From Patescibacteria group bacterium (GTDB lineage Bacteria; Patescibacteriota; Microgenomatia; UBA8517), in NCBI GenBank assembly GCA_036381415.1, contig DASVCV010000001.1:69053-133052 (forward strand): a stretch of 64,000 nucleotides of DNA, read 5' to 3'. The notes under the pieces were generated by a model that ran no database searches, was not told the DNA's origin, and worked only from the letters and a program-made list of their open reading frames with translations. The translations under genes and the position numbers were made by a program. Shown here in pieces: positions 8,733 to 54,404 of the stretch (position 1 is its first letter; every line of letters begins with the position of its first letter).

Positions 8733-8839
8733 ATGTAATTGGGAGTATAGCTCGTGGGCACAACCTTATAAAGAGCCTGTTCAAATAAGATAAATTAAGG
8801 GGTTTGGCTGTAAGGCAAGCTGTAGTAAAATAAAAGTTC

Positions 8840-10918
8840 ATGGGAATACCATATTTATTTAATTTACTTTTTTTAATTCTTCCTTTAGTTTTTTTTACAA
8901 ATACCTCAGAAGTATTTGAATTTAATAAACTTGTAACTGTCTATCTCTTTACCATTGTTATAGTTGGACTTTGGATTATTAAAATGGTTCTTCAGAGGAA
9001 AGTAATTTTTCGTCGCACAATACTAGATATTCCTTTACTTTTGTTTTTAGGCACTCAGCTTCTTTCTACAATTCTTTCTATTGATATGAGAACTTCTATA
9101 TTTGGCTACTATTCAAGGTTTAATGGCGGACTTGCTTCATTACTTTGCTATGCCCTACTTTATTGGGCATATGTATCAAATGTAAGTGAGAAAGAAAATA
9201 GAAAAAATATAATTGTTTTATTAATTTCTGGGGTAATTGTAGCTATCTATGGCACTCTGGAGCACTTTGGACATTCTGTCAGCTGTGTTTTTGTTACAGC
9301 AAAATTTGATGATGACTGCTGGGTGCAGGATGTTAAATTTAGGGTCTTTGCAACTTTGGGGCAGCCTAACTGGCTTGCTGCATTTTTGACATCTATTATT
9401 CCTCTTACCTGGGTGTTGACTATTAGTAATGTAGGCAAAAATGTTAGACAAACTTTGGTAAACAAGAAATTTTGGATGTGGAGTGTAGTTTCATTTCTAT
9501 TTTTTTCTACACTTATTTTTACAAGATCAAGATCAGGACTTGCTGCAATTGGACTAGGAGCTATTGTTTTTTGGGGAGGGACCTTACTTTTTAATTTTAC
9601 TCAAAAAGGAAAATTAAATTTAAAAAAATTAAGTACTTCAGGGATAGTATTTGTAGTTATTAATTTACTGCTTATATTGGCAATAGCTATATTTGGAACT
9701 CCTTGGACTCCTTCAATATCAGAATTTATTAATAAACAAAAGGTTAAAGTAGAAGCTTCTTCAACTACTGGTACAACAGCCCTTGAGACTGGAGGAACTG
9801 AATCTGGTGAAATTAGAAAAATTGTTTGGAAAGGAACACTTGATATCTGGAAGGCATATCCAATTACAGGAAGCGGAGTTGAGACCTTTGCCTATTCCTA
9901 TTATCAGTTTAGGCCTGTAGAACATAATTTGGTTTCTGAGTGGGATTTCCTATATAACAAAGCACACAATGAGTTTCTAAATTATTTATCAACTACAGGA
10001 ACACTTGGGTTTTTGGGATATATGGGTTTAATAATTGCTTCTTTGTACCAAATTGGCAAAAACAAAAACATTGCACTTTTGGCAGGTTATATCACTATAT
10101 TAGTAACTAACTTTTTTGGATTTTCAGTTGTGCTTATTTCTTTTCTGTCATTTATTTTCCCTGCAATTGCTTTAGTTAATGCAAATTTAGATAAATGGAG
10201 TGAGAAAGAAACTGAACTTAAATTTGATACTGATTCTAAAAAGATTTGGGTAGGAATAGCTGGTTTTGGAATGTTATTTTTACTGGTTTTGGTAGGAAGA
10301 TACTGGCAGGCTGACTACTTCTATTCTCTAGGAAAAAGAGAATATCAGGCAGCAAAATATACAAATGCTGCAAGAGATATTAGAAGTGCAATAAACCTCT
10401 CACCCACTGAGGCAGTCTTTCATCAAGAGTTATCCACACAGTATGCCAACTATGCTTTAGGCTTACTTGAACAAAAGGATGCAACTTCTGCTGCAACTTT
10501 GGCTGAGGCTGCAATTAACCAAGGACAAGATGCTTTGGAGATGTCGCCCCGCAATGTGGTTATTAGAAGAGCATATATTTCTACACTTATTAATCTTTCT
10601 ATATTTGACCAGTCAATGCTAACAAGTGCAAGAGATCTTTTAAAAGACACAATGGCACTTGCACCAACTGATCCAAGACTACCCTTTACTTTGGGCAAGG
10701 TCTATTACAGGATGGGCCAGGATGGTGAGGCAATAACAGCACTTGAGAAAGCAGTGGAGTTAAAGCCCAACTATGAGGATGCAAGAATTGCTTTAGAAGG
10801 ACTTTATAAAAAGGATGGAAAATTAGACAAAGCCAGAGAGCAATTGGAATATGTCCTAAAATACATTGCCCCTGATGATGCTTCTTTAAAAGAAGAGCTA
10901 AACAGCCTTGGAAAATGA
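8840..10918 (+). CDS. polytopic membrane protein, O-antigen ligase/Wzy-like with C-terminal TPR repeats
   Basis: More than ten predicted TM helices. The central region resembles an O-antigen ligase. The C-terminal ~200 aa is TPR-like (AITALEKAVELKPNYEDARIALEGLY). Confidence 0.5.
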   Translation: MGIPYLFNLLFLILPLVFFTNTSEVFEFNKLVTVYLFTIVIVGLWIIKMVLQRKVIFRRTILDIPLLLFLGTQLLSTILSIDMRTSIFGYYSRFNGGLASLLCYALLYWAYVSNVSEKENRKNIIVLLISGVIVAIYGTLEHFGHSVSCVFVTAKFDDDCWVQDVKFRVFATLGQPNWLAAFLTSIIPLTWVLTISNVGKNVRQTLVNKKFWMWSVVSFLFFSTLIFTRSRSGLAAIGLGAIVFWGGTLLFNFTQKGKLNLKKLSTSGIVFVVINLLLILAIAIFGTPWTPSISEFINKQKVKVEASSTTGTTALETGGTESGEIRKIVWKGTLDIWKAYPITGSGVETFAYSYYQFRPVEHNLVSEWDFLYNKAHNEFLNYLSTTGTLGFLGYMGLIIASLYQIGKNKNIALLAGYITILVTNFFGFSVVLISFLSFIFPAIALVNANLDKWSEKETELKFDTDSKKIWVGIAGFGMLFLLVLVGRYWQADYFYSLGKREYQAAKYTNAARDIRSAINLSPTEAVFHQELSTQYANYALGLLEQKDATSAATLAEAAINQGQDALEMSPRNVVIRRAYISTLINLSIFDQSMLTSARDLLKDTMALAPTDPRLPFTLGKVYYRMGQDGEAITALEKAVELKPNYEDARIALEGLYKKDGKLDKAREQLEYVLKYIAPDDASLKEELNSLGK

Positions 10919-13565: not shown

Positions 13566-13637
13566 GCCGATGTAGCTCAAAAGTAGAGCGAGCGATTTGT
13601 AATCGCTAGGTTGAGATTGCAAAATTCTCCATCGGCT
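13566..13637 (+). tRNA. tRNA-Thr(TGT)-like with atypical D/T loops
   Basis: Hand-folded cloverleaf: acceptor GCCGATG/CATCGGC, D-stem GCTC/GAGC, anticodon stem AGCGA/TCGCT with loop TTTGTAA (anticodon TGT), and discriminator T. Deviations from canon: U19 instead of G19, G55 instead of U55, and a U-U at 53-61. Its own TATAAT lies at 13552..13557. Confidence 0.45.
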
Positions 13638-13679
13638 CAGATATTGACTTCGGATGTAATTCGGACTAATCTGAGATTA

Positions 13680-14477
13680 ATGTCCTTTGGTTTTTATTCG
13701 TCTCCTGAGTATCGAAAATCGCAATCAGATATTGCAAAGAGTAATTGGGAAAATGGGACATATTCTTTTCGCATTAAACCTCTAGAAACTCGGATTTGTA
13801 AAAACCCAGATTGCAATAAAACTTTTAGAGTAAAGCCATATGACCTCAAAATATATTGCTCACACCACTGTTCTGCTCATATTGGAAATATGGGTAGAAA
13901 ACTGTCTCTATTAACAAGACATAAAATGTCTATGTCAGCATCTCTACCCCGCTCTTTACATAAACGAAGAATTCTTCCCCGTATAAGCCTGGTATGCGTT
14001 GGATGTGGGAAAAAATTTGAGGTTGTTCCATATTTAGCTAAAAAAAGAAAATATTGCAGTTCTATGTGTGCAATTAAAACCATTGGGTCAAGAACTACTT
14101 CACCTAAGGCATCAAAAGGCAAACCAGGAATTAGAAAAGATATTGATCCAAACATTTGTTTTTATAGTACTTGGGAGGCAAATATTGCAAGAGTGTTTAA
14201 CTTGGTAGGGTTAAGGTGGGTTTATGCTCCTAAGATATTTGACCTAGGCCAACATACTTATAGACCAGATTTTTACCTTCCTGATTTTGATATGTACATA
14301 GAAGTAAAAAACTTTTTGGGTACTTATTCCCTAGAAAGGCATATTCTTTTTAAGAGAAAATATCCAAAGATAAAGCTCAAATTACTTCTAAAAAGTGATT
14401 ATCTTAAAATACAAGAAAATTACAGAGATTTAATTGATAATTGGGAAGGACCAAATGCTCCCTATCCAAAGGTGTAA
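13680..14477 (+). CDS. PD-(D/E)xK nuclease-fold protein with two N-terminal CxxC..CxHxC zinc ribbons
   Basis: Two zinc-ribbon-like modules (CKNPDCNK..CSHHC and CVGCGKK..CSSMC) and a C-terminal YRPDFYLPDFDMYIEVK motif (PD..D..ExK). The ORF-track start (TTG at 13611) would overlap the tRNA, so I used the first ATG after it. Confidence 0.4.
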   Translation: MSFGFYSSPEYRKSQSDIAKSNWENGTYSFRIKPLETRICKNPDCNKTFRVKPYDLKIYCSHHCSAHIGNMGRKLSLLTRHKMSMSASLPRSLHKRRILPRISLVCVGCGKKFEVVPYLAKKRKYCSSMCAIKTIGSRTTSPKASKGKPGIRKDIDPNICFYSTWEANIARVFNLVGLRWVYAPKIFDLGQHTYRPDFYLPDFDMYIEVKNFLGTYSLERHILFKRKYPKIKLKLLLKSDYLKIQENYRDLIDNWEGPNAPYPKV

Positions 14478-39481: not shown

Positions 39482-40480
39482 TTATCTCAGTTTCTTAACT
39501 TCTTCTTCCAATTTTGTTAAATTATTTTTGTACCAACGGACAATATTAAAATCTTCGCGGATCATTTGTTCTTTAACATCAACTTTATTTACATACAATC
39601 TAATCAATGAATGTATGTTGGTAATAAGAAAATAGTAATAGGCTCTGAAAATCTTTGATGCTGAATTATCTTTAAAACTCGATTTTAAATATGGTTGGAT
39701 TGATGTGAGAATATTCGCTATCTCAGAGACTTCGAGGTTTACCCTTTCAGGATCAGGTTTAAATAGTGTAAATGTAATTGTTTTCATCAGGTCGACTTCT
39801 ACGAAACCATAGTCAGATTTTTCCCAATCAACAATCCAGAAGTTATTATTTTTATCTCTAATAATGTTTTGCTTTAAAAAATCCCCATGAAGAATTTGTC
39901 CTTTTGTTTGAAAATTTAATATTTCCGATCTATTATTCTCCACTTCTGTTTTTAAGAACTCTAAATATTCTAAATCTCTTGGAGCAGAGGGGAATTGGCT
40001 GCTTTTGATTGCGGTTTCAAGCTGGTTTACATTTCTCATAAAAAGCCAATACCTGTCCTCAAAGGACACTGTTCGTTCTTTGCTTATTTTTTTAAGCTCA
40101 GTATTGGTTTGCGAATATAGTGGGAAAAATTCTGGATTATTGTCACGCATTTGCACTTCTGCTTCGGTACGCAAATCTACTCCATCTATATATCTTGAAA
40201 CGGTAAATATACTACCTTGAAATTCAGTTAGATATTCGTTGTCTTTATTTCTTATTAGCTGTGGTATTTGAATTGTTGTGTTGGCCAAATATTGAGTTGA
40301 TTTTTCCACATCGTTTTTTGCCCTGCCTATTTGAGACTGATAATATTTTTTTACAAAGAATATTCCTTGGGTTGTTTCAACTATCGAAAACAAGGATGAT
40401 GGATCATTAAATTTGGAAAAAATCGGCACAAAGGGTTTGACTTCAACCACATCTCCAATAGAATATCTTTCTTTAATCAT
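39482..40480 (-). CDS. APH/choline-kinase-family phosphotransferase
   Basis: Catalytic loop HGDFLKQNII and IVDWEKSDYG (Brenner motif plus DxE). Confidence 0.6.
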   Translation of the reverse strand: MIKERYSIGDVVEVKPFVPIFSKFNDPSSLFSIVETTQGIFFVKKYYQSQIGRAKNDVEKSTQYLANTTIQIPQLIRNKDNEYLTEFQGSIFTVSRYIDGVDLRTEAEVQMRDNNPEFFPLYSQTNTELKKISKERTVSFEDRYWLFMRNVNQLETAIKSSQFPSAPRDLEYLEFLKTEVENNRSEILNFQTKGQILHGDFLKQNIIRDKNNNFWIVDWEKSDYGFVEVDLMKTITFTLFKPDPERVNLEVSEIANILTSIQPYLKSSFKDNSASKIFRAYYYFLITNIHSLIRLYVNKVDVKEQMIREDFNIVRWYKNNLTKLEEEVKKLR

Positions 40481-40482
40481 AA

Positions 40483-41421
40483 TTATATTTCCTTTGCTCT
40501 TTGTTCGGCACTTAAAAGCGCGCCTGGAATGTTAATTTTCTTTTTATTTAATGCAAGGTCTAGGTCTCCTATACAAATAAAATCTTCAACACTACAGTTA
40601 ACCAACTTTGGCCACCTTCCTTCAAAACCTATAAAAACACCTACATATGCTCCATGAGGTGCCTTTATCTGATATTGACTGTCCGTGGAGATGATTTTCT
40701 CAACTAAATTATTTTCATTTAATTTTATTTCTTCTATTTGCCAACAGTTATCAATAATTTGAATGGTTCCTTTTTTAACATAAGACTCTACATCTCTTAC
40801 AAAATCAGGGTTTGCGTGATCGGCAAACTTATTTTTAACAAAAATTGTTATTGGCCCACGAGGAATTTGTGTATATTTTTCCTCTATGTGCTTAGCAACT
40901 CTTGCGGCTTTAAGTAATGTTTTATCCCCACTACCAATAAGAATTATTTCGTGGTTAGAGAAATCGATTTTCTTTAGATCTTCTGCTGAAAAGCTAGATA
41001 TGTTAAATTCCTGGGCGGGCAATCTTCTTATGGCATCAATTTGTTTAAGTCTTGCGCCCGTGGCTAAAACTACATTTTCTGCTTTATATACTTCTCCACT
41101 TTCAGTTGCTAGCTGATATATGTTTTCAGTTTTAGTTATTTGCTTTATTTCGGAATATTGGACTACTCCGTTAAATCCTTTTTGAAAATAATCTGCAATT
41201 CCAGAACCTAGGTGTTTTCCGTCAACTAAAAAGTCCCATTTGGTTTTCTCGTCGGCTTCATGGTTCCTAACAAATAGGCCGTAAGTAGACAGTTCAGAAC
41301 ACAACTCGTTCCCTTTTTCAAATAGAATAATGTTTGTCTTGTGACTTTTGACTAATTCCTGATAGAAAACGATTCCAGCAGGACCACCTCCAACAATGGC
41401 ATATTCGTATTCTTTTTTCAT
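40483..41421 (-). CDS. FAD-dependent pyridine-nucleotide-disulfide-type oxidoreductase
   Basis: N-terminal Rossmann motif AIVGGGPAG and a second GSGD motif; ~312 aa, thioredoxin-reductase-like. Confidence 0.55.
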   Translation of the reverse strand: MKKEYEYAIVGGGPAGIVFYQELVKSHKTNIILFEKGNELCSELSTYGLFVRNHEADEKTKWDFLVDGKHLGSGIADYFQKGFNGVVQYSEIKQITKTENIYQLATESGEVYKAENVVLATGARLKQIDAIRRLPAQEFNISSFSAEDLKKIDFSNHEIILIGSGDKTLLKAARVAKHIEEKYTQIPRGPITIFVKNKFADHANPDFVRDVESYVKKGTIQIIDNCWQIEEIKLNENNLVEKIISTDSQYQIKAPHGAYVGVFIGFEGRWPKLVNCSVEDFICIGDLDLALNKKKINIPGALLSAEQRAKEI

Positions 41422-42377
41422 CTCGAGCTAAGTGCAAGCAGGTGTTGTTCTATTGAAGCCACAAGTGCTTGAGCGTTATATCCTCCTTCCAGGACAGAAA
41501 TGACTGGTATATTAGCAAAGGTGTCTGTTAATTTTTTGGTCATCTCAAAGTAAGCTTTCTCTTCAAGTGAAAATCCACGCATTGGGTCTCTTTTGTGCGT
41601 ATCGAATCCCGCTGAAACCAAAACAATATCAGGAGAGAATGTTTGTTGTATCTTTTCTACCTGACTGGAGAATTTTTTAAGATATTCAGATTGTGTAGAA
41701 GATCGCGGTACTTGAATGAGGCTCTGCCTGTTCTTAATCTCGGGTTTTTTTGGTTTTCCAATGATAGGAAAGTCTATTGTTGATATATCAAAAAAATAAA
41801 TTGAGTCTATTTTCTTAACAACAGAGAATGTGCCATTTCCAAAATGGGTATCCCAATCTATAACCAGCACCTTCTTTTCTGGGTGGAGATTTAGAAAGAA
41901 TTTACTGGCAATCGCAACATTATTGAAAATACAGAACCCGGCCGCTTCCCTGCGAGAAGCATGGTGTCCCGGTGGTCGGATAGCACAAAAAGCATAGTCA
42001 AGCTTATTCTCGGTTATATATGTAATAGCGGCACATGCGGTAGAAGCGGCCAAATAGGCGGCTTCAAACGTTCCACTATCAATGTATGTATCTTTTCTGT
42101 CTAAATACCAGTTTCGTTTTTTAACTTTTCTAGAAATACGCTTAATTTTTTCAATATATTTGGAATCGTGTACAAGTTCTACACACCCAGCTATTAATTC
42201 TGATTGAGGAACGAATTTTAAATTCTGTAGATCTGGATTTTGTTTTAGATGTTCTTCCAAAGATGCTAATCTTTTTCCAGATTCGGGATGGGAAAAATCT
42301 CTACATTCGTGTTGAACGGCGGTGGCAACATAGAAGAGACCAACTCGGTTATTTTTTTCTACTGAAGATCTTTCCAT
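41418..42377 (-). CDS. histone-deacetylase-family (acetylpolyamine/acetoin-type) amidohydrolase
   Basis: HHASRREAAGFCIFNNVAIA and IDWDTHFGNGT metal-site motifs. Confidence 0.7.
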   Translation of the reverse strand: MERSSVEKNNRVGLFYVATAVQHECRDFSHPESGKRLASLEEHLKQNPDLQNLKFVPQSELIAGCVELVHDSKYIEKIKRISRKVKKRNWYLDRKDTYIDSGTFEAAYLAASTACAAITYITENKLDYAFCAIRPPGHHASRREAAGFCIFNNVAIASKFFLNLHPEKKVLVIDWDTHFGNGTFSVVKKIDSIYFFDISTIDFPIIGKPKKPEIKNRQSLIQVPRSSTQSEYLKKFSSQVEKIQQTFSPDIVLVSAGFDTHKRDPMRGFSLEEKAYFEMTKKLTDTFANIPVISVLEGGYNAQALVASIEQHLLALSSR

Positions 42378-42391
42378 TTTAGATTACCTAT

Positions 42392-42916
42392 TCAGCCTTT
42401 CAAGGCATTCGTAAATTCCTCTGAATATGGGTAATCGTGGGTATCGGCAGGTTTAGAAATTACTTTTAGGTTCGGATTTATAGAATGGAGGAATTCTCTA
42501 ATTTCCTCAAAACTGCCGTGGTTGTCTTGTTCGTTTTGAATACAGATAAAGTTGTTATCTGGAAATGTTTTCAATATTTGGTATGACTTTTTCTCTTCTT
42601 CTCCCAAATCTCTTAGTGGAATTCCACAGAGGACCAGTTTATTGACTGTGTTTGGGTTTGTCTTCAGAATATTCATAGCAACTGCGGTTCCAATAGATTT
42701 TGCTAAGATATTTAGCTTCTCGCCTTCCATTTTTTTTGCTACACGAGAAACCTCTACTTTCATCCACTCTCCCCAGTCAGCAAAAGAGGTATTGTTAGTA
42801 GTCCAATGGTCCCATTCCACCACCTCGGCCGGAATTTCAGGTTCCAGTGCCTTTTTGGTCTCGTATGCCCAATCCTTATTTTTGATCGAAAAACCCGGCA
42901 AAATCATTGTTTTCAT
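42392..42916 (-). CDS. hypothetical protein (possible small alpha/beta-hydrolase-like)
   Basis: AKSIGTAV resembles a nucleophile elbow. It is the first gene of the four-gene minus-strand operon. Confidence 0.3.
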   Translation of the reverse strand: MKTMILPGFSIKNKDWAYETKKALEPEIPAEVVEWDHWTTNNTSFADWGEWMKVEVSRVAKKMEGEKLNILAKSIGTAVAMNILKTNPNTVNKLVLCGIPLRDLGEEEKKSYQILKTFPDNNFICIQNEQDNHGSFEEIREFLHSINPNLKVISKPADTHDYPYSEEFTNALKG

Positions 42917-43788: not shown

Positions 43789-43815
43789 TATGGAGCTATT
43801 TCTCTCCAGATAACT
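43789..43815. repeat. 27-bp direct repeat copy A (tatggagctatttctctccagataact)
   Basis: Exact match to 47936..47962. Read on the minus strand it encodes ..VIWREIAP*, the same C-terminus as the gene at 47935..49650. Confidence 0.8.
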
Positions 43816-43892
43816 GGTTTCTCCAGAGCGCTAAATTTAAATTTTGTCTAGTGCAGCTTGTGTCAGGCTGATATAATGCTTGTTGAATCTAA

Positions 43893-44813
43893 ATGCCAGG
43901 AATAGAACATTTTTCCACAGTTAATACTCCCTTGGATCAATATAGAGAATCTATTGAGTTGGAATTAGTGAAAAGAGTTGAAGTTCCATTCACGAAGGGA
44001 GAAATTATTTATGCACAGACTGAGTCAGGTGTGAGTGTGGTGGTTAAAAAACCTCTGCGCAAAGAGCAAGCAGAGCACGAATGGGTAGGATTAAACAAGG
44101 CACATTCAACAGGAATTTTAGTACCATTGCCGATTGCACTTATAAATTACAGCCAAGAACAGTTGGCTATTGTTTCTGCTCTAGTTGACGGAAATAACCT
44201 ATATTATTTCCCTAACCCCAAAATTAAATCTGAGATTGGTAGGCAAGTCAGGATAATGCATGACCTAGCAGAAGTTGACGGAAGAACTTGGGAATCAAGC
44301 GGACGAAAAACTTTTGAGTATTACGACAAATATAAATTTAATTGGTCTAGAGGGAAAATCGAAGAACTTAGCATTGATAGCGAGACATCTTTATTATTGA
44401 CTTCTCTTGCAATAAATATGGAGGTTTTTTGCAGAGAGTCCCAACCCACCTTTAATCACAACGATTTGCATGACGGTCAGATTATTGTAGATAAAAACAA
44501 CACTCCTGTGATTATAGATTTCGGCAACTGGAATGAAGAAACGTGGCTCAATGACCTGGGTTACTACTTATTTCATTTAATAAGAACTGATAGAAATAAT
44601 GATGACTTTGGAAATTTTTTAGATGGCTACACTGGAGGTAAAAAATTTTCTGATGTTGAGAAATCCAACTTAGCATTCTACTTGTTATTTATATCATCAA
44701 GGGCTCTAGCCTACTTTTACAGAAACAATAGTCCATACCTTGCAATAGCTAAAGATACACACACGAAAGTATTAGCTTACTTAGCTGATGAAGTATTATG
44801 GAAATCTTATTGA
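43893..44813 (+). CDS. APH/protein-kinase-like phosphotransferase
   Basis: Catalytic loop HNDLHDGQII and IIDFGNW (DFG-like). Confidence 0.55.
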   Translation: MPGIEHFSTVNTPLDQYRESIELELVKRVEVPFTKGEIIYAQTESGVSVVVKKPLRKEQAEHEWVGLNKAHSTGILVPLPIALINYSQEQLAIVSALVDGNNLYYFPNPKIKSEIGRQVRIMHDLAEVDGRTWESSGRKTFEYYDKYKFNWSRGKIEELSIDSETSLLLTSLAINMEVFCRESQPTFNHNDLHDGQIIVDKNNTPVIIDFGNWNEETWLNDLGYYLFHLIRTDRNNDDFGNFLDGYTGGKKFSDVEKSNLAFYLLFISSRALAYFYRNNSPYLAIAKDTHTKVLAYLADEVLWKSY

Positions 44814-45460
44814 TTCGACTTTTTTTCTAAGTACTTAAGGTGAGAGTAGTTATTTATATAGTTAATTTGCCAAGTTTGCCATTGGCTGCTGTGGATTAAA
44901 AGCGAGAGACCTGTATTGTTGATTGCTAGATTGTTGATAGCTCTAAACATACTTTCGTGTGAATAGTTCCTGCCTAACAAAACATTGCTTAATAGACACC
45001 TTATAAAAAGATCGTGAGATACAACTAAAACGCGTTTACCTTGGTAGTTTTTTGTTAAAAACAGCAACAACTTAGAAGTACGGTCTAGAACTTCGCGGGT
45101 TGATTCTTCTTTTCCTTCAAATTTCCAGTCCAAATTTCCAAAGTTTTTACGGTATTCATTAGCATATTTCATAGAAATTTCGCTGTTTCTTAAAGCGCCA
45201 TACATATCAGGAAGTTGTTTTCTCTCGTGGATATAATCCAAAATCTCAAAGTCAATTTGAGCTTCTTTAGAAATAATTTCTGCGGTTTTGCGAGATCGCT
45301 CCCAATCGCTCGAAAAAATTTTATCTATTTTGTAAAATTTCACCTGTTTACCAAGAGCTTCGGCTTGTTTCTTACCGATATCGCTAAGCTTTGAATTTGG
45401 CGTTTGCCAACGATCTTTTACGGCTTCACCCTCGGCGTGTCTAGCAAGAAATAAGAACAT
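44807..45460 (-). CDS. histidine phosphatase family protein
   Basis: LARHAEGEA N-terminus. It is a clear paralog of the gene at 32876..33520 (SDWERSRKTAEIISKE vs SKWDRARKTAQIVSKK; VLVVSHDLFIRC vs ILVVTHGLFIRC). Confidence 0.65.
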   Translation of the reverse strand: MFLFLARHAEGEAVKDRWQTPNSKLSDIGKKQAEALGKQVKFYKIDKIFSSDWERSRKTAEIISKEAQIDFEILDYIHERKQLPDMYGALRNSEISMKYANEYRKNFGNLDWKFEGKEESTREVLDRTSKLLLFLTKNYQGKRVLVVSHDLFIRCLLSNVLLGRNYSHESMFRAINNLAINNTGLSLLIHSSQWQTWQINYINNYSHLKYLEKKSNQ

Positions 45461-45473
45461 CTAGAGAATTATA

Positions 45474-46244
45474 CTATAAAGTCCCTATCGCGATAACCCC
45501 AATTACACTTTCGTCTATTTTGTCGAAATCCAGTAATTGGTTTAATCCATCATCTATAAATCCTCCAATAGAACAGGCACCTAACCCAAGCTCTTGTGCA
45601 ATTAGATTTATGTTTTGAGCATAATGCCCATATTCTGTATAAATGTGTCGCAGGCCTCGATCTCCGTACTTACTTTCTGTTCTATCAAAGATAGCAGATA
45701 CAATGATTAAAAGAGACGCTTTGCGTATCCATGGCTGGTTAAATTGCTTTATGGTTTTGATGAAAAATGACTTATCGTAAATTTTTTCCAGTGAATGGCT
45801 TTTAACGTGATAATGATATATTCCTGGTTTTATATTTTCAGATCGAAAAACAATAGGATAAATTTCCAAAGGATATCTTGCTCCTGCCGATGGGTAAAAC
45901 CTTCTCTCACCGGCTTTTTTGAATAATAGTTGTTTTAGACCTCCGGAAAAATATAACAGATTGGAAAGGTCACTAATCTTAATATATTTTTTGGTAAATT
46001 TTCTTGTAGAGACTCTTTTGACCAATGCATCGTTTAGACTCCATTTTGCGGCAACTGGAACAGGTAGCAAAGCTTGGTTCATTCTCGGATAAGCTTTGTA
46101 ATAAATCTTTTTCCACTGTTCAGGCCAAGTACTATATGGAGTTTTTTTGTAATTACTGAAATCCTTTATTTTTATACTATTGTTGAACTTTCTCGACAAA
46201 GAAAGATCCAATTTCTCTAAAATACTTACAGTTTTATTTTTCAT
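45474..46244 (-). CDS. SagB/McbC-type FMN-dependent dehydrogenase (azoline oxidase)
   Basis: RRFYPSAGARYPLEIY...PGIYHYH, the hallmark of the SagB-type dehydrogenase domain, and a nitroreductase-fold C-terminus (GHYAQNINLIAQELGLGACSIGGF). Confidence 0.7.
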   Translation of the reverse strand: MKNKTVSILEKLDLSLSRKFNNSIKIKDFSNYKKTPYSTWPEQWKKIYYKAYPRMNQALLPVPVAAKWSLNDALVKRVSTRKFTKKYIKISDLSNLLYFSGGLKQLLFKKAGERRFYPSAGARYPLEIYPIVFRSENIKPGIYHYHVKSHSLEKIYDKSFFIKTIKQFNQPWIRKASLLIIVSAIFDRTESKYGDRGLRHIYTEYGHYAQNINLIAQELGLGACSIGGFIDDGLNQLLDFDKIDESVIGVIAIGTL

Positions 46245-47560
46245 AAGAATGGATGTGGGTAAGCGTTTAGTTTAGCGTTGCGTTTGTATCCTAACTTAGA
46301 TGGCACGTCATATAGCCTTTTCCCTCCCCATAGTGGAAACTTTTCGTCTAAGTATAAGGGTTGCATACCTGGAACTAAAACTTTTACAGCCTTGAAAGGA
46401 ATATTTTTAAAATACATTGGAGTTATATCTTTATAATAAATTGTATAGTTCCTTTTTCTTAAAATATTCTTTAACTGTGTAATTTGTGCCTGCACTGACA
46501 CTCTCTTATTTTTAGGTCCAATATTTTTGATTTTCAGTTCTTTAATTAAAAAGTTAATTTTAGAAATTGATCTAGGATGGTACCAAAGCAACCCTCTGTT
46601 TTTTATACTTGAATCCTCAAACAGTTTCACTTTCGAAATACTCACAGGGTTTTTAATGTATGCTTCTCTAATCCAACTCCTAGTATGAAAAGCTTCATTA
46701 ATAGATCCGACAATAGCCTTTTCCACATCTAAATTAGCTTTAAGGCCGACAGAGACAGCCTTACTTAACCCTGAACGGTCAATTAATATAGAAGCAACAA
46801 CAGGTATATCTAAATCTGTACTAATATCTACTGAATATAACTCCATGTTATACCTATCTGTAATTTCAACTAATGAACTTATAATTTTATTTTTAGAGGA
46901 TCTCAAATCATATTTTTTTGGCTTCAGTTTGTTCAAATAGTAGATCATAAAAGAATCTCTCTCAATAATTTCGTAAATTCCTGCTAAAATTGCTGAATCC
47001 AAATTAGAATGACCTGCAGCACCTGTGCTTATTGAAGGGTGTATTATTGGTTCGCTTTGAATTGGATCGTATGAAAGATAAATTGATTGGCAAGGGACAA
47101 GGTATTCTTTGCTGTTAGTTAATGATTTAACTTTTGTCCATCTAAACCTAGACTTTTCATCAATTAGAAATTTTTTATACTCGTTAATATGTAGTTGTTT
47201 CTCAGAAAAATACACAAACAACCTTGGGTTTATTGCACTAGTTTTAACATCTGAATATGTACCTGTAAAATCAACATCTTTTTGGAAAAAAGCAAAATTA
47301 CTATATCTCTCCAAAGCCTCAACTAAAGCTTTGAGTACAGCCATCTTTTGTGAGAAAAAAGAAACGCCAGAAGAATTAGAACTAAAGTGCAGACCATCAT
47401 GTGTTAGGTTCTTATCGCTTAACGTTGCAGAGTAAAACCAAAATTTAGGCTCATCATAATGTTGCCTAGTTCTTTCAAAAGACTCAACTAGATTGATTTG
47501 ACCTAGAGCAGAATCAAGCCCTTTGATTATGTTAGAAGTACTTTTTTTCATAAAACACAA
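46241..47560 (-). CDS. YcaO-domain cyclodehydratase (standalone)
   Basis: YcaO N-motif SGVSFFSQKMAVLKALVEALERYS and ATP-binding region ISTGAAGHSNLDSAILAGIYEIIERDSF. It overlaps the SagB gene by 4 nt. Confidence 0.75.
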   Translation of the reverse strand: MCFMKKSTSNIIKGLDSALGQINLVESFERTRQHYDEPKFWFYSATLSDKNLTHDGLHFSSNSSGVSFFSQKMAVLKALVEALERYSNFAFFQKDVDFTGTYSDVKTSAINPRLFVYFSEKQLHINEYKKFLIDEKSRFRWTKVKSLTNSKEYLVPCQSIYLSYDPIQSEPIIHPSISTGAAGHSNLDSAILAGIYEIIERDSFMIYYLNKLKPKKYDLRSSKNKIISSLVEITDRYNMELYSVDISTDLDIPVVASILIDRSGLSKAVSVGLKANLDVEKAIVGSINEAFHTRSWIREAYIKNPVSISKVKLFEDSSIKNRGLLWYHPRSISKINFLIKELKIKNIGPKNKRVSVQAQITQLKNILRKRNYTIYYKDITPMYFKNIPFKAVKVLVPGMQPLYLDEKFPLWGGKRLYDVPSKLGYKRNAKLNAYPHPFL

Positions 47561-47605
47561 TCAAAACTACAAAGACACTATATATCGATTCAAAGAGATA
47601 ATGCC

Positions 47606-47803
47606 TTATTTGTTCGTTTTTCTATTTTTACTACCACCATCGCATCCGCAGCTCGCGCATGATGAGCAGCTACCGCAGCTATTTGACCCACAAGCACAAT
47701 TGGAACAATTTCCACAGCTTTGTGCGCAATCGTCCTCATTGCCTGCTACAGGAATATTTTGGTGTGGTATGGCTTCAGTTAAGCTTCTTTCTTCTCTACT
47801 CAT
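47606..47803 (-). CDS. RiPP precursor peptide with Cys/Ser/Gly-rich core
   Basis: 65 aa. The leader is MSREERSLTEAIPHQNIPVAGNEDD and the core is CAQSCGNCSNCACGSNSCGSCSSCASCGCDGG. A strong SD (AAGGGGGTGA) sits 5 nt upstream of the ATG, and the stop is 45 nt upstream of ycaO. Confidence 0.6.
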   Translation of the reverse strand: MSREERSLTEAIPHQNIPVAGNEDDCAQSCGNCSNCACGSNSCGSCSSCASCGCDGGSKNRKTNK

Positions 47804-47840
47804 TCAACTCACCCCCTTTAGTACAAGACATGTGGATATC

Positions 47841-47869
47841 AATATATTCTTTGTTATAGGGTCTGTCAA
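47841..47869 (-). promoter_or_regulatory. sigma70-like promoter TTGACA-N17-TATATT for the precursor-ycaO-sagB operon
   Basis: Minus strand: TTGACA (47864..47869), a 17-nt spacer, then TATATT (47841..47846), ~37 nt upstream of the precursor ATG. Confidence 0.5.
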
Positions 47870-47934: not shown

Positions 47935-49650
47935 TTATGGAGCTATTTCTCTCCAGATAACTCTGGTTCTTGTCAGGTCTCTTGGATATGAGAAAAGAAA
48001 GTCAGGAGCATATTGTATAAACTCTGCTGGTGTTGTTGTATTTAAGGCACCTAAATCTCTTTGAAGATTAATGCCAGATAACCCTGCTAAAGAGCCTCTA
48101 ATAGAAAGCTGACTGGCTCCTAGACCTGTTGAAATTACTCCATCTGCCAGAAACAATCCTTCAGCAGCAGGAGTTCCGGGATTGGAAGTAAGTGTAGGAT
48201 CAAAAATTATATTTCCTCCACTTCCTCCTGCATCTTTTCCTGCTATTGCCATGAAGAATCCATCTCCAACTTTTGAAACTCTAATGCTTGATGCAACTGT
48301 AAGATTTCCTCCTTTAACTAGGATTATGTATTTTCTAGAAGAATTAACATTAACATTTCCAGTTAAAGTTAGATCTCCATTTCTTCTAAACCAGACAAAT
48401 CCATGAGATGGGGTTCCGTTTGCTTGAAGGTATGCACCGCTAATTGAATCAGTTGGAATATCATTTACCTGAATATCTGATGGAATAAGTCCTTCAAAGT
48501 AAGCATAGTTATATGTTTTTCCCTGATATGTAGTATTGGTTAACCACTTCTTGGATGATACTGTTCCATTGGTTGCACCTGCTGAAAAGTCTGCAGTTGC
48601 TCCTCCATACGTAACTACTCCTGGAAAAGTTCCTGTTCCATCTAAGTTAAATGAAGGAATGCAGCCTGGAAGAGTACACGTGAGGGGAATTAAAGAAGTT
48701 AAATTTCCATTTGTAATTACATCTCCATCTTTTACCTGCCACCATGCTTTAGATGGGGCTACATTTACCGCTGTTTGTGCACTACACCTTATAGAGCCTC
48801 CCATTACTACTGAAGCACTCATAACTGTATTGCCTATTCCAACTCCTCTTACTGCTGTTCTAAATGGAGAAGAAGTTATAGGACTGGTTGCTGTTGCAAT
48901 TGCCGCATTTCCAGTATTGTAATCAATCTCAGAAATAGACCCGTTTGTAGTAGTTAGTGTTGGGGTAACACTAGTTTCACCTCCAACAAAGGCTTGTACT
49001 GATGGAGGAAGAGAGATTGTACATGTTGGTGGAGGAGGACAAAGACACGTACCTCCCTGATTTGTAAGACCAGGGGCGCAGCCACTACAAGTTCCGTAAG
49101 TAGAACAGGTTGCATCACAGTAATTTCCCTCACCATAGTTACATCTTGGATATCCAGTTGCTCCTGTATCCCAAGCACAGCCTGGAACATACCCACCACC
49201 ACAGCCAACATAGCTTTTAACACAAGACCCATTACCACAACAAATGTTGCTTTGAGCAGGATCACAATTAGATGCATTACAGCCTCCCCCACCTCCACCA
49301 CCAGGAGGAGTAGGTGTGGGACTAGAGCTTGCTATCCAGCATTTACCAGGGTTTGTTGTTGTACTACCTCCACAGTTACCGCTTCCATATTGTCCTGGAG
49401 AACAGCTAAAAGAAAAGGCAGTATAATCACACCATCCTCCCGACCCTGTTTCAAAATTACAGCTCACGTAACGGCAATTACTTGAAGGACCGTTGCATTG
49501 GTATATACCGCCTGGTATTGATGAGCAGACGTAATCATCTGTGCAAACATAGCAGGATTGAGCTTTCACTGGTTTGGGTAACAGCAATAAAACAAGTGAT
49601 AAAATTCCGAACAAAATGGAACCAAAAAGAAGATTTTTGTATATATGCAT
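47935..49650 (-). CDS. secreted Cys/Gly-rich protein (571 aa)
   Basis: N-terminal signal peptide (LFGSILFGILSLVLLLLPKPVKA) and an N-terminal half very rich in Cys/Gly/Ser/Thr with poly-Gly and PTPTPP tracts. The C-terminal half has beta-rich repeats. Confidence 0.5.
   Translation of the reverse strand: MHIYKNLLFGSILFGILSLVLLLLPKPVKAQSCYVCTDDYVCSSIPGGIYQCNGPSSNCRYVSCNFETGSGGWCDYTAFSFSCSPGQYGSGNCGGSTTTNPGKCWIASSSPTPTPPGGGGGGGCNASNCDPAQSNICCGNGSCVKSYVGCGGGYVPGCAWDTGATGYPRCNYGEGNYCDATCSTYGTCSGCAPGLTNQGGTCLCPPPPTCTISLPPSVQAFVGGETSVTPTLTTTNGSISEIDYNTGNAAIATATSPITSSPFRTAVRGVGIGNTVMSASVVMGGSIRCSAQTAVNVAPSKAWWQVKDGDVITNGNLTSLIPLTCTLPGCIPSFNLDGTGTFPGVVTYGGATADFSAGATNGTVSSKKWLTNTTYQGKTYNYAYFEGLIPSDIQVNDIPTDSISGAYLQANGTPSHGFVWFRRNGDLTLTGNVNVNSSRKYIILVKGGNLTVASSIRVSKVGDGFFMAIAGKDAGGSGGNIIFDPTLTSNPGTPAAEGLFLADGVISTGLGASQLSIRGSLAGLSGINLQRDLGALNTTTPAEFIQYAPDFLFSYPRDLTRTRVIWREIAP
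47936..47962. repeat. 27-bp direct repeat copy B
   Basis: Exact match to 43789..43815. It forms the last 8 codons plus stop of the 47935..49650 gene. Confidence 0.8.
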
Positions 49651-53087: not shown

Positions 53088-54404
53088 ATGCAATATGATC
53101 TAAATGACCTTTTGATTAAGCCTTCTTCAAACGAAGAAGAGAAATATTGTAAAAAGTACAATATCCATATTAGAAGATTAGAAAACGGCGCTACTATTTT
53201 AGGGATCCCCTGTAAAAAAGACTTTACTTCTTGGGCTCAAATTAAATATGAATTTTTAGAGGGAGCTTATGGCAATAAACCAGGCAGTGTGCATCTTTTG
53301 GAACACTTTATAAACAAAAAAACAAAGCGTACTGCTAACGAAAACTCACTTAATATCGGTGCTTATACGAATTTAACTGAAATCGGAGAAGAAGTATCAG
53401 GCATTGCAAACCCGGCCGCCCTCGATTATGGAGTTTGGACAATTTTAGATCAGATTAGAAAGTCTCTCGAGTCTCCTTTAATAAATGTTGATAATATTGA
53501 AAAAACTCTAGAAACAGAGCGAGATGTCATAAAAGCAGAAATTCAAAAACGCGATAGCGACCAAAACTTTCAGATTAGCAAGCACTTTAACCATGTAGTT
53601 TTTTCTAAGGAAAATCCTCTACACGATGTTTCTTTAATAACTGGAACGGAAAAAGATTTGAATAAATTATCATCCGATATGTTAAAGGACATTGAAAGAA
53701 GGATTTTGATTGCTAAAAATCTTTTGATTAGCTTCTATACCGAAGGAGATCTTTCAATAGCAGATGTTATCGAAAAAGAGTTGGAAAATTCTTTTTCAGA
53801 CTTCCCAACAGATGAAAAAGAAGGATTAAATAGAAGATTGTTGGAAAAAATTAACCCCAACCTTTTGCCTGGCAGTACTTATTCCCAGGATTCAGGTATT
53901 AAAAATGGAATCATTACGACAGAATTTGTGTGGACCCTAAATCATAAATTTCCCTCTGATAAACATTTAGGTTTACTGCTCCTTTATAAAATAATCGCAA
54001 CTGAACTGTTTTTATATTCTAGAAAAATGGGTTGGGGTTATTTTACGGATACTATTTTAACCAGACCAACTAACAATTTAGTACTTTTAAGGTTAAGGAT
54101 TGATGCTAGGAAGGATAACCAAAAAGAATTATTAAAGGGTATAAAAGAAGTGCTGCTTTCTATAAAAAAGGTCAGCCAGTCGGTTGTTGAAAACGAAAAG
54201 AAAAGACAGAAAGCTATTCCAATAAATGCGGTTGCTAGACTCTCTTGGATAGTAAATGGAATTAAAGACTATGGTGCAATGATAGATGCAGATAAAGTTA
54301 GAGATAATAAATTAGGTGTAACACCGCAAATTTTAAATGAATTAGTGGATGAACTAATATCTATTCCACCCACAATAATTGTTACCGGAGACATAAATTA
54401 TTAA
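53088..54404 (+). CDS. M16-family (pitrilysin-like) zinc peptidase
   Basis: Inverted zinc motif HLLEH in the context GSVHLLEHFINKKTKRT (HxxEH...). Confidence 0.5.
   Translation: MQYDLNDLLIKPSSNEEEKYCKKYNIHIRRLENGATILGIPCKKDFTSWAQIKYEFLEGAYGNKPGSVHLLEHFINKKTKRTANENSLNIGAYTNLTEIGEEVSGIANPAALDYGVWTILDQIRKSLESPLINVDNIEKTLETERDVIKAEIQKRDSDQNFQISKHFNHVVFSKENPLHDVSLITGTEKDLNKLSSDMLKDIERRILIAKNLLISFYTEGDLSIADVIEKELENSFSDFPTDEKEGLNRRLLEKINPNLLPGSTYSQDSGIKNGIITTEFVWTLNHKFPSDKHLGLLLLYKIIATELFLYSRKMGWGYFTDTILTRPTNNLVLLRLRIDARKDNQKELLKGIKEVLLSIKKVSQSVVENEKKRQKAIPINAVARLSWIVNGIKDYGAMIDADKVRDNKLGVTPQILNELVDELISIPPTIIVTGDINY

Follow-up and report, generated by a model that had tools for sequence, protein, structure and literature searches.

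A 4.1-kb cassette of five genes, carried by a Patescibacteria group bacterium as an insertion at the 3′ end of a gene for a surface protein, likely specifies a peptide made on the ribosome and modified after translation (a RiPP) of the linear azol(in)e-containing peptide (LAP) or thiazole/oxazole-modified microcin (TOMM) type. The cassette was found in a 64-kb stretch of contig DASVCV010000001.1 (GenBank assembly GCA_036381415.1, positions 69,053 to 133,052), hereafter the window, in which open reading frames (ORFs) were called, translated, and then scored against the family models of Pfam and NCBIfam. A preliminary description, made from the letters of the DNA alone, had proposed a compact cassette of three minus-strand genes at 45474-47869. 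The ORF calls contain all three, among them the 65-residue Cys/Ser-rich peptide ORF at 47606-47803 (-). That span proved too narrow, as the operon runs on into a histidine phosphatase gene (44807-45460, -) and the conserved unit adds a kinase gene (43893-44813, +) whose product has the fold of aminoglycoside phosphotransferases (APH). The features of the cassette are as follows, in order of position:

43789..43815, no strand: distal direct repeat TATGGAGCTATTTCTCTCCAGATAACT, a non-coding duplicate of the last 8 codons and two stop-codon bases of gene 47935-49650, which marks one end of the cassette
43872-43877: TATAAT box ahead of the kinase gene
43893..44813, plus strand: APH-fold kinase of 306 amino acids (aa), PF01636 at 35.8 bits, convergent to the operon
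44807..45460, minus strand: histidine phosphatase of branch 1, 217 aa, PF00300 at 102 bits, fourth gene of the operon
45474..46244, minus strand: SagB-type FMN-dependent azoline dehydrogenase, 256 aa, TIGR03605 and PF00881, containing YPSAGARYPLEIY
46241..47551, minus strand: single-domain SagD-family YcaO cyclodehydratase, 436 aa, TIGR03604 and PF02624
47606..47803, minus strand: precursor peptide, 65 aa, MSREERSLTEAIPHQNIPVAGNEDDCAQSCGNCSNCACGSNSCGSCSSCASCGCDGGSKNRKTNK, conserved in the loci called type A below
47808..47818, minus strand: Shine-Dalgarno sequence AAGGGGGTGAG, 4 nt ahead of the precursor ATG
47841..47869, minus strand: sigma-70-like promoter TTGACA-N17-TATATT, 11/12
47936..47962, no strand: proximal direct repeat, the true 3′ end of gene 47935-49650 (-) and the insertion site

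The ORF of the YcaO protein spans 46241-47560 (-) in full and contains the sequences ISTGAAGHS and YEIIERD. Its true start is likely the ATG at 47551, which gives 436 residues, the length of an identical public protein (P0001). The start of the SagB gene overlaps the YcaO stop by 4 nt, the phosphatase gene follows SagB in the same orientation after a gap of 13 nt, and the kinase and phosphatase genes overlap tail to tail by 7 nt. The promoter and strong Shine-Dalgarno sequence noticed earlier were borne out: TTGACA-N17-TATATT is the top promoter-like site of the region, matching 11 of 12 consensus positions, and in three diverged relatives (L009, L001, and L016) the -35 hexamer (TTGACA, invariant), the -10 hexamer, and the Shine-Dalgarno sequence AAGGGGGTGA are kept while the remaining spacer is not. 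A single promoter probably drives the precursor, YcaO, SagB, and phosphatase genes, with the kinase gene transcribed separately from the convergent strand.

Relatives of the cassette were collected as 87 loci from scans of species-representative genomes and metagenome contigs, and more were added via individual protein look-ups. ORFs were called in the first 92 loci and in the window and scored with the window proteins, and the neighboring genes were clustered. The relatives are annotated as Woesebacteria, one of them on an 810-kb "chromosome", and the guess that the host belongs to the Candidate Phyla Radiation (CPR) was right, the source being Patescibacteria. Deposited proteins identical to the YcaO, the kinase, and the adjacent surface protein bear the name Patescibacteria group bacterium. 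The YcaO and SagB genes are adjacent in 78 of 91 loci, and most of the others terminate at or shortly after YcaO. In the clade of the window, here called type A, genes for the precursor, YcaO, SagB, and histidine phosphatase follow one another on one strand and meet a convergent gene for the APH-family kinase. Wherever YcaO identity reached ~46% or more and the flanking sequence sufficed, this block was found. The view of the cassette as a minimal three-gene set accordingly fails, because all relatives at this level have the five-gene block where the contig allows and the repeats delimit the same block. Beyond the five genes the flanks of type A loci are unrelated, with pilus genes in L010, a NUDIX gene in L009, a comM-like gene in L095, and others elsewhere. 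Three distant loci (L033, L037, and L063) have the phosphatase and kinase too, though arranged differently. Type B (27 loci) matches a published CPR example and has YcaO, SagB, and an M16 peptidase in that order. Type C looks archaeal (DPANN-like), with a ThiF-family protein ahead of YcaO and a ~190-aa HExxH protein on both sides of the YcaO-SagB pair.

The precursor of the window has a 25-residue leader and a core with 10 Cys residues, most of them preceded by Ser. Upstream of YcaO, homologous peptides with this Cys pattern recur in about 20 loci of type A, at YcaO identities as low as 46%. When 18 distinct type A peptides were aligned, the leader had an invariant A-x-P preceded by D or E, within the motif L-x-(E/D)-A-x-P-x-Q (LTEAIPHQN in the window), and the core had the invariant positions DC..SC...SCG.C, again usually with Ser before Cys. 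In most loci the stretch immediately upstream of YcaO holds a short ORF whose tail is rich in Cys. Type B leaders carry a related D-A-K-E-F (DAKEF) motif, and their cores are basic and rich in Pro and Cys. No curated precursor model in Pfam or NCBIfam matched the window peptide. Public gene calls at this position in two related contigs (L008:9813-9962 and L009:9794-9985) follow an Ala/Val-rich ORF in an alternative frame of the same strand, which was rejected because conservation down to 46% YcaO identity, like the conserved Shine-Dalgarno sequence ahead of the ORF, is a property of the Cys-rich frame alone. The Cys-rich precursor is probably missing from the public annotation of these two contigs.

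In searches with hidden Markov models (HMMs), both enzymes matched their own families: YcaO scored 251.5 bits with TIGR03604 (cutoff 219.25) and 182 bits with PF02624, and SagB scored 147.5 bits with TIGR03605 (cutoff 78.4) and 79.5 bits with PF00881. With the curated cutoffs exceeded and the YcaO motifs present, the proposed identities as cyclodehydratase and SagB-type FMN dehydrogenase stand. Residues E77, E80, R81, S174-T175-G176, E193, E196, R197, and D198 of YcaO are invariant, as are R77, S79, R81, K192, and Y193 of SagB in 63 homologs, the Lys-Tyr pair K192-Y193 being what we take to be the catalytic motif of SagB/McbC-type dehydrogenases. The YcaO C-terminus, P-H-P-F-L, is invariant in 19 homologs and has Leu, not Pro, in the final position; azoline-forming YcaO "D" proteins are said to have a proline-rich C-terminal PxPxP motif, together with acidic residues that bind ATP and Mg2+. 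The AF2 model of YcaO (pLDDT 89.5) consists of one YcaO domain, which aligns in structure with the YcaO half of LynD (TMq 0.78) as well as with MusD and the standalone MJ1094. The cyanobactin heterocyclases LynD, TruD, and MusD are the closest solved structures and sequences for this domain (sequence E = 3e-21; TMq 0.78), but they are fusions of ~750 aa whose N-terminal half, an E1-like domain with a RiPP recognition element (RRE), binds the leader, whereas the window protein is the YcaO domain alone, at 436 aa. McbD is a distant fold match (TMq 0.51-0.55).

Judged by its sequences, this is a genuine azol(in)e-RiPP cluster of precursor, SagD-type YcaO, and SagB, as the preliminary description had it; its chemistry we infer. 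YcaO would spend ATP to cyclodehydrate the core Cys residues, and probably also the preceding Ser residues, to azolines, which the FMN-dependent SagB would oxidize to thiazoles and oxazoles. The product would be a polyazole with several possible oxazole-thiazole pairs. Microcin B17 has oxazole-thiazole bis-heterocycles, and the Ser-Cys pairs of the window peptide could yield the same. We consider it very improbable that YcaO performs some other amide activation (to a thioamide or amidine) or that the peptide mainly binds metal and is not an azole antibiotic. Members of the YcaO superfamily differ widely in their chemistry, the model is similar to MJ1094 as well, a standalone thioamide enzyme (TMt 0.81-0.83), and the regular CxxC spacing and acidic residues are like those of metal-binding peptides. 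However, the SagD model scored above its cutoff, the thioamidation model TIGR03266 reached 74 against a cutoff of 365, no TfuA is present, and the top fold match is the cyanobactin heterocyclase LynD. The YcaO gene also overlaps by 4 nt that of a SagB with the invariant Lys-Tyr pair, an enzyme needed only to oxidize azolines.

The preliminary description had remarked that neither a C partner nor a fused docking domain is apparent, and both parts of this remark held. An HMM was built from seven ThiF-like partners of archaeal-type relatives, in which YcaO is preceded by a ThiF protein (PF00899) bearing a winged helix at its N-terminus. When run on all window ORFs of at least 50 codons, it gave no match to a ThiF/E1-like partner at E ≤ 10 in the 64 kb. 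No ThiF-like gene was found within ~4 kb of the type A or type B clusters either (~70 CPR-type loci). An RRE fused to YcaO was rejected because the first 66 residues form, in the AF2 model, one helix and three strands within the LynD YcaO fold, with no winged helix, the protein being single-domain. Action of a YcaO without a partner is unusual yet has precedent, since a partner with an RRE is present "in most cases" of azoline-forming YcaOs, and is thus not obligatory, and since bottromycin YcaOs work alone (PMC7136475). The bottromycin enzymes resemble that of the window in processing a ribosomal peptide without a partner protein (PMC7136475). They differ in being divergent, in making a single thiazoline and a single macroamidine on a substrate with a follower peptide, and in having neither a multi-Cys core nor a SagB pairing. 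In the cassette, the D-A-x-P leader motif would be read by YcaO or SagB itself, because types A and B have no other proteins in common. The leader might instead be read in trans by an E1/ThiF-like or other RRE protein whose gene lies in another part of the genome, as most characterized azoline-forming YcaOs need such a partner (PMC7136475), archaeal-type members of the same YcaO-SagB family have a ThiF protein, and the analysis spans 64 kb of the genome only. We regard this as improbable, as the window and the ~70 CPR-type loci are free of ThiF-like genes, partner-free YcaOs are known from bottromycin biosynthesis, and the cassette inserts as a unit in different genes and genomes, so that the host factor would be needed everywhere. 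A possible yet unsupported candidate for a leader peptidase is a 438-aa protein encoded in the window at 53088-54404 (+), at a distance of 5.3 kb from the precursor. It lacks a Pfam match at E ≤ 0.001 but matches the cluster-associated M16 profile (E = 9e-9) with an intact HLLEH zinc motif. It was not counted in the system because it lies outside the repeats and is absent from other type A flanks except that of L010.

The two remaining proteins of the cassette are a phosphatase and a kinase. In the phosphatase, R7, H8, R55, and H149 are invariant and E79 is near-invariant in 20 sequences, which is the RHG-type catalytic set of branch 1. Its nearest solved relative is the metal-independent phosphoserine phosphatase 4ij5 (E = 4e-8), and no equivalog model of NCBIfam was passed. 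The kinase scored 35.8 bits with PF01636 (cutoff 23.2). In 32 homologs K52, E63, H189, N190, Q196, D209, and F210 are invariant and D191 and G211 near-invariant, the invariant Gln (Q196) standing in the catalytic loop where APH enzymes carry Asn. A search of its sequence against PDB chains returned only noise (E > 0.09). The top PDB matches of its AF2 model (pLDDT 92.8) in Foldseek were FN3K, YtaA/CotS, APH(9), APH(3′), and macrolide phosphotransferases (Mph), and choline kinases matched as well, with TM-scores of ~0.55-0.6. Identity to solved APH-type kinases is 12-20%, so that the resemblance is at the level of fold only. On this model the kinase is assigned to the group of small-molecule and antibiotic kinases and not to the Hanks protein kinases, with no single subfamily picked out. 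Only 33 close homologs were found among 5.8 billion proteins, all with at least 48% identity and all from the narrow clade of the window. The kinase is linked to YcaO-SagB in ~22 loci, and most homologs examined sit in the full cassette. Remnant loci were also found: L095 and L096 have SagB, phosphatase, and kinase and no YcaO, L093 has the phosphatase and kinase only, and L099 has an intact kinase beside a truncated phosphatase. Degraded loci thus retain the kinase longest (L095, L093, and L099).

For the kinase and phosphatase we favor a role in self-protection of the producer by reversible phosphorylation, in which the kinase would O-phosphorylate the peptide inside the producer and the phosphatase would reverse this. 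The reasons, which support this role weakly, are that the kinase is kept longest, that it is transcribed separately, and that there are precedents in ComG of corramycin (PMC10996006) and Cph of capreomycin (PMC10730852), APH-like kinases encoded in biosynthetic gene clusters that inactivate peptide antibiotics by phosphorylation and so confer self-resistance. The comparison has limits, as those antibiotics are non-ribosomal, the corramycin cluster has no phosphatase (PMC10996006), and the window kinase is likened to these enzymes by fold only. A literature search on a kinase or phosphatase in YcaO clusters found nothing specific, and PADLOC matched no cassette protein to a defense system. Class V lanthipeptide pathways employ APH-like enzymes as Ser/Thr kinases, and lasso-peptide precursors are phosphorylated by a kinase. 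The kinase and phosphatase could instead belong to tailoring, with core Ser residues O-phosphorylated to give a phosphopeptide product or to set a leaving or protecting group that steers between oxazole and dehydroalanine, and with the phosphatase trimming leftover phosphates. The phosphatase gene does continue the row of biosynthetic genes, beginning 13 nt past SagB, the nearest solved relative of the enzyme acts on phosphoserine, and Ser is abundant in type A cores, where S-C pairs are conserved. We nevertheless hold a tailoring role to be unlikely, as no phospho-lyase is present, the kinase gene is transcribed separately on the opposite strand, and the intact kinase outlasts YcaO, the precursor, and even the phosphatase (L093, L095, and L099), which would be unexpected of a pure tailoring enzyme. 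It is also doubtful that the two genes are an autonomous passenger that does not act on the peptide, whether addiction or toxin-antitoxin-like or engaged in small-molecule salvage. Such a pair would explain why L093 has these two genes by themselves, within an island that also carries Bro-N, GIY-YIG, S24 peptidase, and Phd/ParE genes, and why they lie on either side of YcaO-SagB in the distant L033, L037, and L063. It fits poorly with the 33 close kinase homologs, all from a narrow clade and most of those examined in a full cassette, with the lack of a PADLOC match, and with co-inheritance down to 46% YcaO identity despite unrelated flanks.

The five genes are bounded by perfect 27-nt direct repeats at 43789-43815 and 47936-47962, the only two copies of this sequence in the 64 kb, where none was expected (100 shuffles). 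The proximal copy (47936-47962) consists of the codons for ..VIWREIAP and the first two stop-codon bases of gene 47935-49650 (-), the distal copy lies 77 nt beyond the kinase start, and the 4,147 bp between equivalent points of the repeats hold the promoter and exactly five genes. Repeats of this kind also surround related cassettes in other loci. In L016 a 25-nt perfect repeat of different sequence is formed from the same gene end, and in the type B loci L046 and L062 the same gene end yields repeats of 36 nt (perfect) and 33 nt (91%). L010/L011 have a repeat of 232-241 nt (97-99%) that duplicates the 3′ end of pilC, L095 has one of 104 nt (76%) that duplicates the end of a comM-like gene, and weaker repeats flank L002/L020 and L015 (28 nt in L002 and 42 nt in L015). 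Because the repeats bound the five genes exactly and comparable repeats occur around related cassettes, the cassette is an inserted element that lacks a recombinase of its own. The simplest mechanism to infer, given that no recombinase gene is present and that repeat lengths range from 25 to 241 nt, is Campbell-type integration by homologous recombination, which would be RecA-dependent, or the action of a recombinase in trans; by the same route the cassette probably moves. No YcaO relative was found in the viral contigs of IMG/VR that would point to carriage by phage. Surface-protein homologs in L103-L105 end in ..W-R-E-[VI]-A-P* with no cassette downstream. These loci were rejected as an isogenic empty site because their downstream DNA is not homologous to that of the window, and they document presence/absence variation only, with no before/after pair.

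Gene 47935-49650 (-) belongs to a family of secreted, Cys/Gly-rich proteins of ~550-1000 aa that have no Pfam or NCBIfam match and end in ..W-x-E-[VI]-[AT]-P*, with members in the window and in L016, L026, L027, L004, L030, L046, L062, and L103-L105. A member lies just upstream of the YcaO cluster in 9 of 91 loci, and its last codons form the flanking repeat in the window, L016, L046, and L062. The 3′ end of these genes looks like a recurrent insertion site. There are hints that other cargo uses it as well: in L103 a 19-nt repeat (95%) of the surface-gene tail (8824-8842 and 9368-9386) encloses a single NUDIX gene (8876-9322), with the repeat itself weak at E = 8e-4. In L010 (8500-14017) the cassette sits inside a type IV pilus/type II secretion system (T2SS) operon, and the 241-nt duplicate of the pilC 3′ end downstream corresponds to a 67-aa T2SSF fragment.

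Several observations weigh against the reading of the cassette as an inserted LAP/TOMM unit with self-protection. The cassette has no exporter and no dedicated leader peptidase, and an extracellular antibiotic role is for that reason unproven. The kinase and phosphatase have no N-terminal extension that could hold a signal peptide, R7-H8 of the phosphatase lying at its extreme N-terminus, and both are probably cytoplasmic; such a pair acting on one substrate in the cytoplasm would be futile unless parted in time or by the form of the substrate. As to the insertion, all five genes enclosed by the repeats have assigned products, none of them a recombinase, no circular form was seen, and no repeat was detectable in roughly half of the type A loci whose flanks were adequate, although the repeat-less loci fit older insertions. 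A bolder version, which we put forward tentatively and think unlikely to hold in full, is that of a recombinase-less mobile RiPP module that targets the ..W-x-E-[VI]-A-P* end of surface genes, whose YcaO would read D-A-x-P without an RRE partner and whose kinase and phosphatase would form a phospho-switch, the kinase keeping the peptide inert in the producer and the phosphatase re-arming it. If this were true, the module would combine toxin and immunity in one self-contained unit that passes between members of ultra-small bacterial populations.

The pairing of a YcaO "D" protein with an FMN dehydrogenase "B" on a Gly/Ser/Cys-rich core is shared with McbBCD of microcin B17 and SagBCD of streptolysin S, and the two-step chemistry proposed for the window is theirs. 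Unlike the loci of those two peptides, the cassette is without an E1-like C protein (McbB/SagC), an exporter or immunity pump (McbEFG/SagGHI), and a leader protease. Closer parallels come from the CPR. Sharrar et al. 2020 (mBio, PMC7298704) described a LAP cluster in a genome of the Microgenomates and counted 110 others across 93 additional CPR genomes, and a nitroreductase adjoins YcaO in 89 of the 110. The expectation in the preliminary description that a RiPP cluster would be unusual in a CPR genome is out of date in view of these counts. The published clusters are like the cassette in their hosts (Patescibacteria, including Microgenomates and Woesebacteria), in a YcaO beside a nitroreductase/SagB, in a short Cys/Ser-rich precursor, and in that no C protein is described for them. 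In the example shown there the third enzyme is a peptidase, as in type B, whereas the window clade has the histidine phosphatase and APH-fold kinase in its place. A repeat-bounded insertion or a shared leader motif is not mentioned in the passages of PMC7298704 that were consulted. The locus therefore belongs to a published kind, the CPR LAP clusters, and its five-gene form, bearing a kinase and phosphatase, partner-less, and repeat-bounded, appears to be new, being undescribed in the literature found. What appears new is the five-gene unit itself, the lack of a ThiF/E1-like partner in the 64 kb or in the CPR-type loci, and the 27-nt repeats that bound exactly five genes.

Azole-peptide clusters of the CPR are known from surveys and none has been characterized; a literature search for a characterized CPR azole peptide found nothing specific. 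The window clade offers a small test system, with five genes in 4.1 kb and a conserved leader motif. It could be used to address how an azoline-forming YcaO recognizes its substrate without an E1, ThiF, or RRE partner, what purpose a kinase and a phosphatase serve in RiPP biosynthesis, and how organisms with genomes of ~0.8 Mb gain and lose accessory cassettes when they have no machinery dedicated to mobile elements. Should the kinase serve immunity, it would represent a new lineage of peptide-antibiotic phosphotransferases.

Further observations concern the other cluster types and the rest of the window. The ~190-aa paralogs of type C (L006, L007, L044, L067, L083, L087, and L089) have no Pfam match and carry H-E-x-x-H, for example in NLIHELVHNN; they may be an undescribed leader protease. 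Most of these seven loci also have the ThiF-like partner. In a subset of type B (L034, L035, L041, L042, L048, and L049) the cluster is preceded by a protein of 535-714 aa with a radical-SAM-like CxxxCxxC motif (PF04055, weak at 21 bits) and then a GNAT-like acetyltransferase, which suggests extra tailoring in these loci. In the window, a four-gene block at 39482-42916 (-) encodes a second APH-family kinase (39482-40480), a pyridine-nucleotide-disulphide oxidoreductase, an enzyme of the histone deacetylase family, and a small alpha/beta hydrolase; this block is not conserved beside the cassette in other loci. A fourth tRNA was detected by Rfam at 13566-13637 (+) with 56.6 bits; it is unreported by ARAGORN and overlaps the start of ORF 13611-14477.

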